Below are positions 22,309 to 22,389 of a stretch of 64,000 nucleotides of DNA, in pieces (within the stretch, counting starts at the first letter, position 1; each line of letters opens with the position of its first letter). The stretch is from an uncultured Gemmatimonadales bacterium (GTDB lineage Bacteria > Gemmatimonadota > Gemmatimonadetes > Gemmatimonadales > GWC2-71-9): NCBI GenBank assembly GCA_963847895.1, contig CAWKBO010000002.1, positions 33,722-97,721 of the forward strand, given 5' to 3'. The position numbers were made by a program, and so were the translations under genes. Under the pieces are notes generated by a model. The model made no database searches. It saw nothing but the letters and a program-made list of their open reading frames with translations, and was not told the origin of the DNA.

Positions 22309-22357
22309 TTCAACCCTCCCTTGCGCCGCGGTCGGTCGGGTTGAAGAATCAAGGAGG

Positions 22358-22377
22358 CTTGTGAAATGTTTCACAAG
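22358..22377. promoter_or_regulatory. CRP/FNR-family-type palindrome CTTGTGAAA-TG-TTTCACAAG (core TGTGA-N6-TCACA)
   Basis: Perfect 9-bp arms ending 9 nt upstream of the cydA GTG (22386). It sits immediately after a strong AAGGAGG (22351-22357). Confidence 0.45.
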
Positions 22378-22389
22378 AATTTTCCGTGA
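22366..22389 (+). other. possible 7-codon upstream ORF (MFHKNFP) overlapping the cydA start codon
   Basis: The ATG at 22366 lies 8 nt downstream of AAGGAGG. Its TGA (22387-22389) overlaps the cydA GTG (22386-22388). cydA itself has no obvious SD. Confidence 0.25.

Follow-up and report, generated by a model that had tools for sequence, protein, structure and literature searches.

Cytochrome bd oxidase genes are among the described targets of the repressor Rex, and cydABCD is a Rex target in both Streptomyces and Bacillus. The operator consensus has been given as TTGTGAAW4TTCACAA in Staphylococcus aureus and as TTGTGAANNNNTTCACAA in Streptomyces avermitilis, and a generalised cross-phylum form goes back to comparative regulon work, as cited in PMC5317091. 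At cydA1 of S. avermitilis, the Rex footprint extends from -3 to +25, and the Rex operator (ROP), ATGTGAACGCGTTCACAA, is located downstream of the transcription start site (TSS). A regulator of another family acts on the same genes in Mycobacterium smegmatis, where CRP (Crp1/Crp2) activates cydAB from sites centred at -65.5 and -93.5.

The DNA analysed here (the window, a stretch of 64 kb with a GC content of 70%) harbors a cydAB operon that is predicted to be under the control of an operator. cydA (22386..23564, + strand) encodes cytochrome bd oxidase subunit I, a protein of 392 aa initiated at GTG (Pfam PF01654, E = 2e-126), and cydB (23592..24692, + strand) encodes subunit II, of 366 aa (Pfam PF02322, E = 4e-68). 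The N-terminus of CydA can be aligned to those of 160 relatives from residue 1 onwards, and all of them keep the motif xDL[LF]AAR[SA]Q with synonymous variation at the DNA level. Moreover, no start codon other than GTG 22386 lies downstream of an in-frame stop (TGA, 22362-22364) and ahead of the conserved N-terminus, TDLFAARAQM. The start call is considered sound on these two grounds, namely that no other start codon is available and that the N-terminus shows synonymous variation in relatives. In the same neighbourhood, a TonB receptor with a CarboxypepD_reg domain is encoded, which fits a diderm of the Gemmatimonadota group.

An earlier, sequence-only reading of this region had stated that cydA has no Shine-Dalgarno (SD) motif of its own. 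Indeed, no SD motif was found in the 9 nt preceding the GTG, yet this proved to be ordinary for the clade, since an SD-like 4-mer at -18 to -5 was present in just 21% of 158 related cydA genes, against a background of 10%. Comparable values (20% versus 12%) came from a rough count over the genes of the window itself. Accordingly, an SD-less cydA is the rule in this clade (~80%) and no anomaly.

Upstream of cydA, a repeat finder delimited a 20-bp palindrome, CTTGTGAAA-TG-TTTCACAAG, at 22358-22377, whose arms of 9 nt each (22358-22366 and 22369-22377) are separated by 2 nt and are 100% complementary, just as had been described from the letters alone, with an ATG at the centre. The 18-bp core of this palindrome, TTGTGAAATGTTTCACAA (22359..22376, no strand assigned; hereafter the box), is a predicted Rex-type operator: read as TTGTGAA-ATGT-TTCACAA, it agrees in 18 of 18 positions, with 0 mismatches, with TTGTGAA-N4-TTCACAA, the consensus of Rex operators. 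The 18-mer is unique in the window, where 0.15 matches would be expected even with 3 mismatches allowed, and the palindrome is therefore far beyond chance.

The conservation of this element was assessed in the 160 closest CydA loci, recovered in equal parts from genomes and metagenomes (80 each) and sharing 63-74% identity; record titles of the 80 genome loci were almost all Gemmatimonadales or Gemmatimonadota. The DNA scanned summed to ~1.02 Mb, of which 730 kb came from the window plus the genome loci and 293 kb from the metagenome loci. With a threshold of up to three mismatches to TTGTGAA-N4-TTCACAA, 39 sites were identified, and 36 of them sit 4-37 nt 5' of a cydA start. The window and genome loci contributed 26 matches (23 located 4-31 nt before cydA; 18 perfect), whereas all 13 matches from metagenome loci lie 4-37 nt before cydA, five of them being perfect, so that perfect sites reached 23 in total, window included. 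The remaining three matches, away from cydA, are G+C-rich and have three mismatches each; within the sequence covered, Rex-type sites were found at cydA only. Thus, the box precedes cydA at 36 of 161 loci (35 relatives and the window), or ~23%, and ~77% of the relatives lack it.

When 32 distinct sites were pooled, the positions of the half-site T T G T G A A proved 91-100% invariant, A and T predominated in the N4 spacer, and no constraint was seen in the flanks. This position matrix is partly circular, since its sites were chosen by their match to the consensus, a limit that does not extend to the 23 perfect matches given the chance expectation. A left-arm variant, ATGTGAA, occurs in five relatives (L081, L016, L086, L094 and L102). 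Since it is the sequence itself that is conserved, and not just the potential for pairing, a protein-binding dyad is favored over an RNA helix. Conservation in relatives had been set beforehand as the test for both the palindrome and a short upstream open reading frame (uORF) that begins within it; the former was kept among the 160 relatives and the latter was not.

The position of the box relative to the promoter was also informative. Among 32 distinct loci, the box and the start codon are 4-37 nt apart (median, 22 nt). In 21 of these 32 loci, against ~2.5 expected, 9-11 nt separate the box from the end of an upstream TTGnnn hexamer, with 15 at exactly 10 nt; when 9-13 nt is allowed, the count rises to 24 of 32 distinct relatives. 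With a 17-nt spacer, the -10 hexamer would fall on box positions 8-13 (e.g., TAATTT). In this context, 19 of the 32 sites have a box spacer that starts with TA when read in the cydA sense, and none has one on the opposite strand; this 19:0 strand asymmetry indicates a predicted -10 of the form TAnnTT embedded in the box in most relatives. When the phasing of the -35 was cross-tabulated with the presence of TA spacers, no significant association was detected (p = 0.28). The window itself, with a box spacer that reads ATGTTT and has no TA, follows a minority layout.

For the window, the promoter was predicted by alignment with its closest relative, L081 (74% CydA identity). The blocks conserved between both are, in order, CCTTGCGCC, AGAATC exactly 17 nt later, the box, and GTGACG, while the 17-nt promoter spacer, the position of the SD-like heptamer AAGGAGG, and the 9 nt preceding GTG have diverged. 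The predicted -35 of cydAB is TTGCGC (22321..22326, + strand), associated with the first of these blocks, which is invariant in the window and L081; the predicted -10 is AAGAAT (22344..22349, + strand; GAGAAT in L081), whose AGAATC is kept 17 nt after TTGCGC in both. This pair would place the TSS at ~22354-22358 (most likely ~22355-22357), within AAGGAGG or at its end, and the predicted operator at ~+2 to +22. TTGCGC-17-AAGAAT is missing from the output of the promoter scanner, since just 3 of 6 positions of its -35 match. An alternative -35, TTGAAG (22341..22346, + strand), located 12 nt before the box, could be paired with a weak -10, AAATGT (22364-22369), with a TSS near 22376; it is not conserved in L081, and the promoter TTGAAG-17-AAATGT is less favored. 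The + strand promoter offered by the scanner, TTGGCA-18-GATCAT (22261-22290), was set aside, as it is not conserved in L081 either. Both box placements coexist in tandem in one relative (L047).

Taken together, we estimate a probability of about 0.68 that the palindrome is a Rex-type operator placing cydAB under a dimeric repressor, the SD-like heptamer and the uORF being incidental. The box works like a Rex operator and is probably one: it is an 18-bp repeat with conserved half-sites and an A/T-rich N4, and its target, cydAB, is controlled by Rex elsewhere. Furthermore, its proximity to the start codon is that of a repressor operator and not of a class I/II activator site. The suggestion that the operator is repressor-like in position thus gained support, as the box is kept at so many cydA loci at a distance that appears too short for an activator.

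By analogy with characterised Rex systems, from which the identity of the binding protein and its response to NADH are inferred, a dimeric repressor would bind the box when the NADH/NAD+ ratio is low, and a build-up of NADH, due to oxygen limitation or a respiratory block, would release it and induce the high-affinity bd oxidase. In the genome under study, an operator just 3' of the TSS would block promoter clearance or early elongation, and in most Gemmatimonadales relatives the box would overlap the -10 hexamer. cydA would be translated from its SD-less GTG, like most cydA genes of the clade, and AAGGAGG, the central ATG and the 7-codon ORF would represent lineage-specific sequence in unconstrained positions around and inside the operator.

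The closest described counterpart is the ROP of cydA1B1CD and cydABCD in S. avermitilis and Streptomyces coelicolor, which shares with the window the 18-bp consensus and the bd-oxidase operon as target. The placement of the S. avermitilis ROP just 3' of the TSS is the one predicted for the window, its sequence ATGTGAACGCGTTCACAA bears the same ATGTGAA left arm seen in L081 and the four other relatives, and in both cases an AT-rich operator is embedded in a high-GC genome. On the other hand, Streptomyces belongs to Actinomycetota and the window to Gemmatimonadota, a diderm of the FCB group in which the box is a predicted operator; the spacer, CGCG in the Streptomyces ROP, is W-rich in Gemmatimonadales, as in Firmicutes sites; and in most Gemmatimonadales relatives the box is predicted to lie on the -10, unlike the Streptomyces placement at +1. 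In Bacillus subtilis, where Rex (YdiH) acts on cydABCD, ldh and ndh, and in the S. aureus regulon, the consensus TTGTGAAW4TTCACAA with its A/T spacer fits the Gemmatimonadales matrix, and the logic is alike, with NADH-reoxidising functions being induced. Those regulons comprise many operons, whereas here cydAB alone was examined, with the box in ~23% of related cydA loci.

Regarding the regulator itself, a tblastn search with a Rex probe identical to PDB 1XCB, Rex being defined as a protein with a PF06971 wHTH domain and a PF02629 Rossmann domain, found no rex gene in the 64-kb window or in the ~1 Mb of relatives' cyd loci. Searches of protein, cluster, contig and plasmid data retrieved no labelled Rex protein from Gemmatimonadota, some candidates being unlabelled; the labels recovered were Trueperaceae, Rokubacteria/Methylomirabilota, Planctomycetota, Armatimonadota/Acidobacteriota, Actinomycetota and Bacteroidota. 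Beyond Gram-positives, Rex occurs in Bacteroidota, Planctomycetota, Methylomirabilota, Armatimonadota, Deinococcota and Calditrichota, and in the latter it has been reported with an autoregulatory box. Rex is hence widespread among diderm phyla, FCB group included, and its presence in this genome is inferred. Our literature search found no work tying Rex to Gemmatimonadota. It may also be that Gemmatimonadota lack a canonical Rex and that some other regulator came to recognise the Rex motif by convergence.

Among the other explanations, control of cydAB by a CRP/FNR-family regulator that binds TGTGA-N6-TCACA and answers to cAMP, oxygen or a signal of that sort is one of the two that survive best, although we consider it unlikely. 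A CRP/GlxR-type site had been proposed from the letters, and in part rightly, since the core TGTGA-N6-TCACA is exact at 22360-22375; the extended invariant sequence, TTGTGAA-N4-TTCACAA, is of Rex type and not of CRP type. The 16-bp core with a 6-bp centre is identical for both families, so that a CRP-family protein with altered flank preference would fit the sequence too, and the searches described above retrieved no labelled Rex from Gemmatimonadota. Nevertheless, the positions that distinguish the families, TT before GTGA and the A/T just inside the core (TTGTGAA/TTCACAA), are 91-98% invariant and favor Rex. In Escherichia coli, the CRP consensus is AAA-TGTGA-T...A-TCACA-TTT, and the box does not carry the AAA-TGTGA-T flanks that CRP prefers.

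The M. smegmatis system lends CRP some further credit, as CRP controls cydAB there via such sites, with a TGTGA-N6-TCACA core upstream of cydA and a role in the response to respiratory stress. Those sites are activating and lie far upstream, at the -65.5 and -93.5 positions given above, whereas the box of the window has Rex-specific flanks and sits on the predicted -10/+1, 4-37 nt from the start codon among the loci compared, a location incompatible with class I/II activation. Moreover, when up to 2 mismatches to the CRP core are tolerated, the window shows no excess of matches (8 versus 13 expected). By tblastn, no CRP/FNR homologue was found in the window, and among the relatives' loci the sole match was an FNR-like gene near cydA in L020, a locus without the box.

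The other explanation of similar standing, also improbable in our judgement, holds that the palindrome acts in RNA besides its role as an operator: an SD-led uORF would be translated, cydA would be made by termination-reinitiation at GUGA, and a hairpin would gate the uORF AUG. The elements invoked were all found in place by direct reading and script indexing, namely AAGGAGG (22351..22357, + strand) and, 8 nt after it, the ATG (22366-22368) of a 7-codon ORF, ATGTTTCACAAGAATTTTCCGTGA (22366..22389, + strand), which reads ATG TTT CAC AAG AAT TTT CCG TGA, encodes MFHKNFP, and ends with a TGA (22387-22389) that overlaps the cydA GTG (22386-22388) as GTGA. In its favor, AAGGAGG-N8-ATG is an optimal ribosome-binding site in a genome where strong SDs are rare, the stop of the uORF overlaps the start of an SD-less, GTG-initiated cydA, and the hairpin (-7.6 kcal/mol) ends 8 nt before that GTG. 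Furthermore, uORF coupling is an established bacterial mechanism; the uORF/uRBS cases of Mycobacterium tuberculosis and Sinorhizobium and the leader ORFs of Salmonella mgtA resemble the window in their SD-led short ORF and stop/start overlap.

Conservation weighs heavily against this proposal. A uORF that is led by an SD, opens with ATG and stops at the cydA start was found in 0 of 160 relatives, and both the SD and the ATG are missing even from L081, which has the same layout of promoter, box, 9 nt and GTG, with CTGTGG in place of AAGGAGG and CTTT in place of ATGT. The uORF ATG sits in the variable N4 spacer, where ATGT was seen in 1 of 32 distinct sites, and the overlapping TGA is forced by codon 2 of cydA (GTG ACG), so that it is also present in relatives without the uORF. 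AAGGAGG is not enriched in the window either (5 copies versus 4.35 expected), and its four further copies seem to lie within genes. Since ~80% of the clade's cydA genes are without an SD, no rescue mechanism is needed. The heptamer is lineage-specific and probably either coincides with the 5' end of the transcript or precedes it, as the conserved -10 predicts a TSS within it; under the box-embedded alternative, transcription would start past the uORF. In known systems, functional uORFs normally lie in a mapped leader and are conserved among relatives, whereas in the window the SD straddles the predicted TSS and nothing of it is conserved.

The hairpin itself fared no better. The 20-nt hairpin alone has the -7.6 kcal/mol expected of any palindrome, and folds of longer stretches (45-81 nt) gain little, if any, stability over shuffles, with z-scores of -0.02 for 81 nt, -1.41 for 56 nt and -1.98 for the 45-nt predicted 5' end, for which 8 of 200 shuffles were as stable. 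No Rfam covariance model matched at E <= 1 between 22100 and 22600 on either strand. A -10 within the box would leave the left arm untranscribed in most relatives. The hairpin reading is therefore unsupported, with AAGGAGG and ATG unconserved and the arm sequence, rather than its pairing, conserved; the proposal of termination-reinitiation was likewise not borne out, given the absence of AAGGAGG and of the central ATG from every relative.

The small probability that we keep on a functional uORF is due mainly to L016 and L094, the one other lineage in which a loosely similar arrangement occurs: GGAGGG directly precedes a box ending 4 nt from ATG, and a 6-codon GTG ORF ends in TGATG. Since GGAGGG forms part of the predicted promoter's spacer in these two loci, we regard the resemblance as coincidental. 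The SD and the 7-codon uORF are thus probably a by-product and not a control device, and the ORF itself is probably incidental. A bolder combination of both ideas, in which one lineage moved a Rex-type operator into its 5' leader, a new AAGGAGG and uORF came to drive cydA reinitiation, and the 20 bp serve at once as operator and AUG-gating hairpin, seems to us more doubtful still.

Very improbable is a split ribosome-binding site, for which phage T4 gene 38/25 is a precedent. In this scheme, no uORF is needed, and the hairpin at 22358-22377 would bring AAGGAGG to an effective distance of 8 nt from the cydA GUG; the spacing agrees, with the SD ending at 22357, a 20-nt hairpin and then 8 nt to GUG, and a similar effective spacing (~9 nt) holds in L016/L094. 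It faces the same objections of conservation and TSS as the uORF, the SD is mostly or wholly paired in the 56- and 81-nt MFE folds (with UUUCC as partner in the latter), and no covariation is seen since the arm sequence is itself invariant. Least credible of all is a cydA leader in which the hairpin and AAUUUUCC serve as an attenuator or intrinsic terminator. A terminator scan did flag 22358-22377 with the T-rich tail AATTTTCC, but 0.4 such matches are expected by chance in the 350-nt region. No more than 3 G-C pairs are found in the stem, 4 U stand in a row in the tail, which reaches the start codon, and the T-run after the box is absent in L081 (GGGTCCGGG) and other relatives.

Rex control of cytochrome bd oxidase is already textbook knowledge in Actinomycetota and Bacillota, and what is new with the Rex-type operator is the phylum, with no new mechanism. 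Within one clade, the operator has two predicted placements, over the -10 in one case and just 3' of the TSS in the other. In brief, a near-perfect Rex-type operator dedicated to cydAB in many Gemmatimonadales offers a handle of one operator and one operon on the switch to high-affinity respiration and, if the regulator is Rex, the predicted reach of NADH/NAD+-sensing control would extend to a soil-abundant, poorly studied diderm phylum.

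Besides the Rex box, the region upstream of cydA holds a second perfect palindrome, ATATCAAC-TTTG-GTTGATAT, on the minus strand (22289-22308, within 22286-22313), which overlaps a strong divergent minus-strand promoter that carries a TG, TTGAAA-16-TATGAT. The equivalent divergent promoter in L081 (about 1385-1420), the closest relative of the window, is the perfect consensus TTGACA-16-TATAAT, and 7 nt past its -10 lies the start of an ArsR-family gene (motif ...ERCVCDL...), which looks leaderless. Since the palindrome at 22289-22308 overlaps the counterpart of the promoter that precedes an ArsR-family gene in L081, it is probably an ArsR-type operator. 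All that stands in the window where L081 has arsR is a 19-codon minus-strand ORF, MATTMPTRPAVPPSFMSAS-stop (22223-22279), whose ATG (22279) occupies the position equivalent to the leaderless start in L081; the window seems to have lost the regulator gene and to have kept its operator and promoter. After this ORF comes a minus-strand gene for a fused GNAT acetyltransferase and low-molecular-weight phosphatase, ArsN/ArsC-like (21330-22223). Directly past this divergent gene, a di-haem SoxA/TsdA-type cytochrome c gene (20453-21295, plus strand) adjoins a TonB-dependent receptor gene (17127-20033).

A third inverted repeat, TTGATATTTCAACCC / GGGTTGAAGAATCAA (22302-22316 / 22338-22352; 15 nt, 87%, 21-nt loop), has the ArsR-type palindrome at one end and the predicted cydA -10 at the other; it is not conserved in L081.

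Among Gemmatimonadales relatives, the cydA locus L047 carries a tandem pair of perfect Rex-type boxes separated by 2 nt (3071-3108), the first at the -10 position and the second 9 nt ahead of the GTG start, uniting in a single locus both operator placements of the clade. In two other relatives (L016 and L094) the box ends 4 nt from the cydA ATG, and with the predicted -10 lying within the box the cydA mRNA would be essentially leaderless. At the left arm of the box in these two loci, about 25 nt upstream of cydA, stands GGAGGG-ctg-ATGTGA, in which the ATG directly abuts a stop codon.

Tandem octamer or heptamer arrays of 3-6 copies, (AGAAGACG)n, (CTCGTCTT)n or (CCTCGTC)n, were detected 3-130 nt upstream of cydA in L014, L048, L050 and L051, together with L037 (6 arrays observed vs about 0.8 expected in 160 upstream regions). 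Most of them finish 3-9 nt ahead of the cydA start, and in L048 they are inverted in orientation and lie on both sides. The array-bearing relatives are without a good Rex box, that of L037 being only degenerate.

Shine-Dalgarno (SD) usage is low, both window-wide and across 158 Gemmatimonadales cydA starts, where an SD-like 4-mer precedes 21% of starts vs a background of 10%; for cydB, with its start taken as a first-start guess, the figure is 39%. GTG opens 27/158 cydA genes, including all three loci with the box 9 nt from the start.

Outside the clade, on a Rokubacteria/Methylomirabilota contig (L165; JBFONE010000306.1), an atpI-atpB/E cluster is immediately followed by rex, and its first atp gene is preceded at a distance of about 40 nt by a weak Rex-like site with 3 mismatches (4144-4161), an arrangement that recalls Streptomyces Rex control of atp.

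Finally, CydA measures only 391-392 aa in the window (22386-23564) and in all 160 relatives, and its Pfam match ends at model position 376/418; subunit I therefore has a short form throughout the clade.
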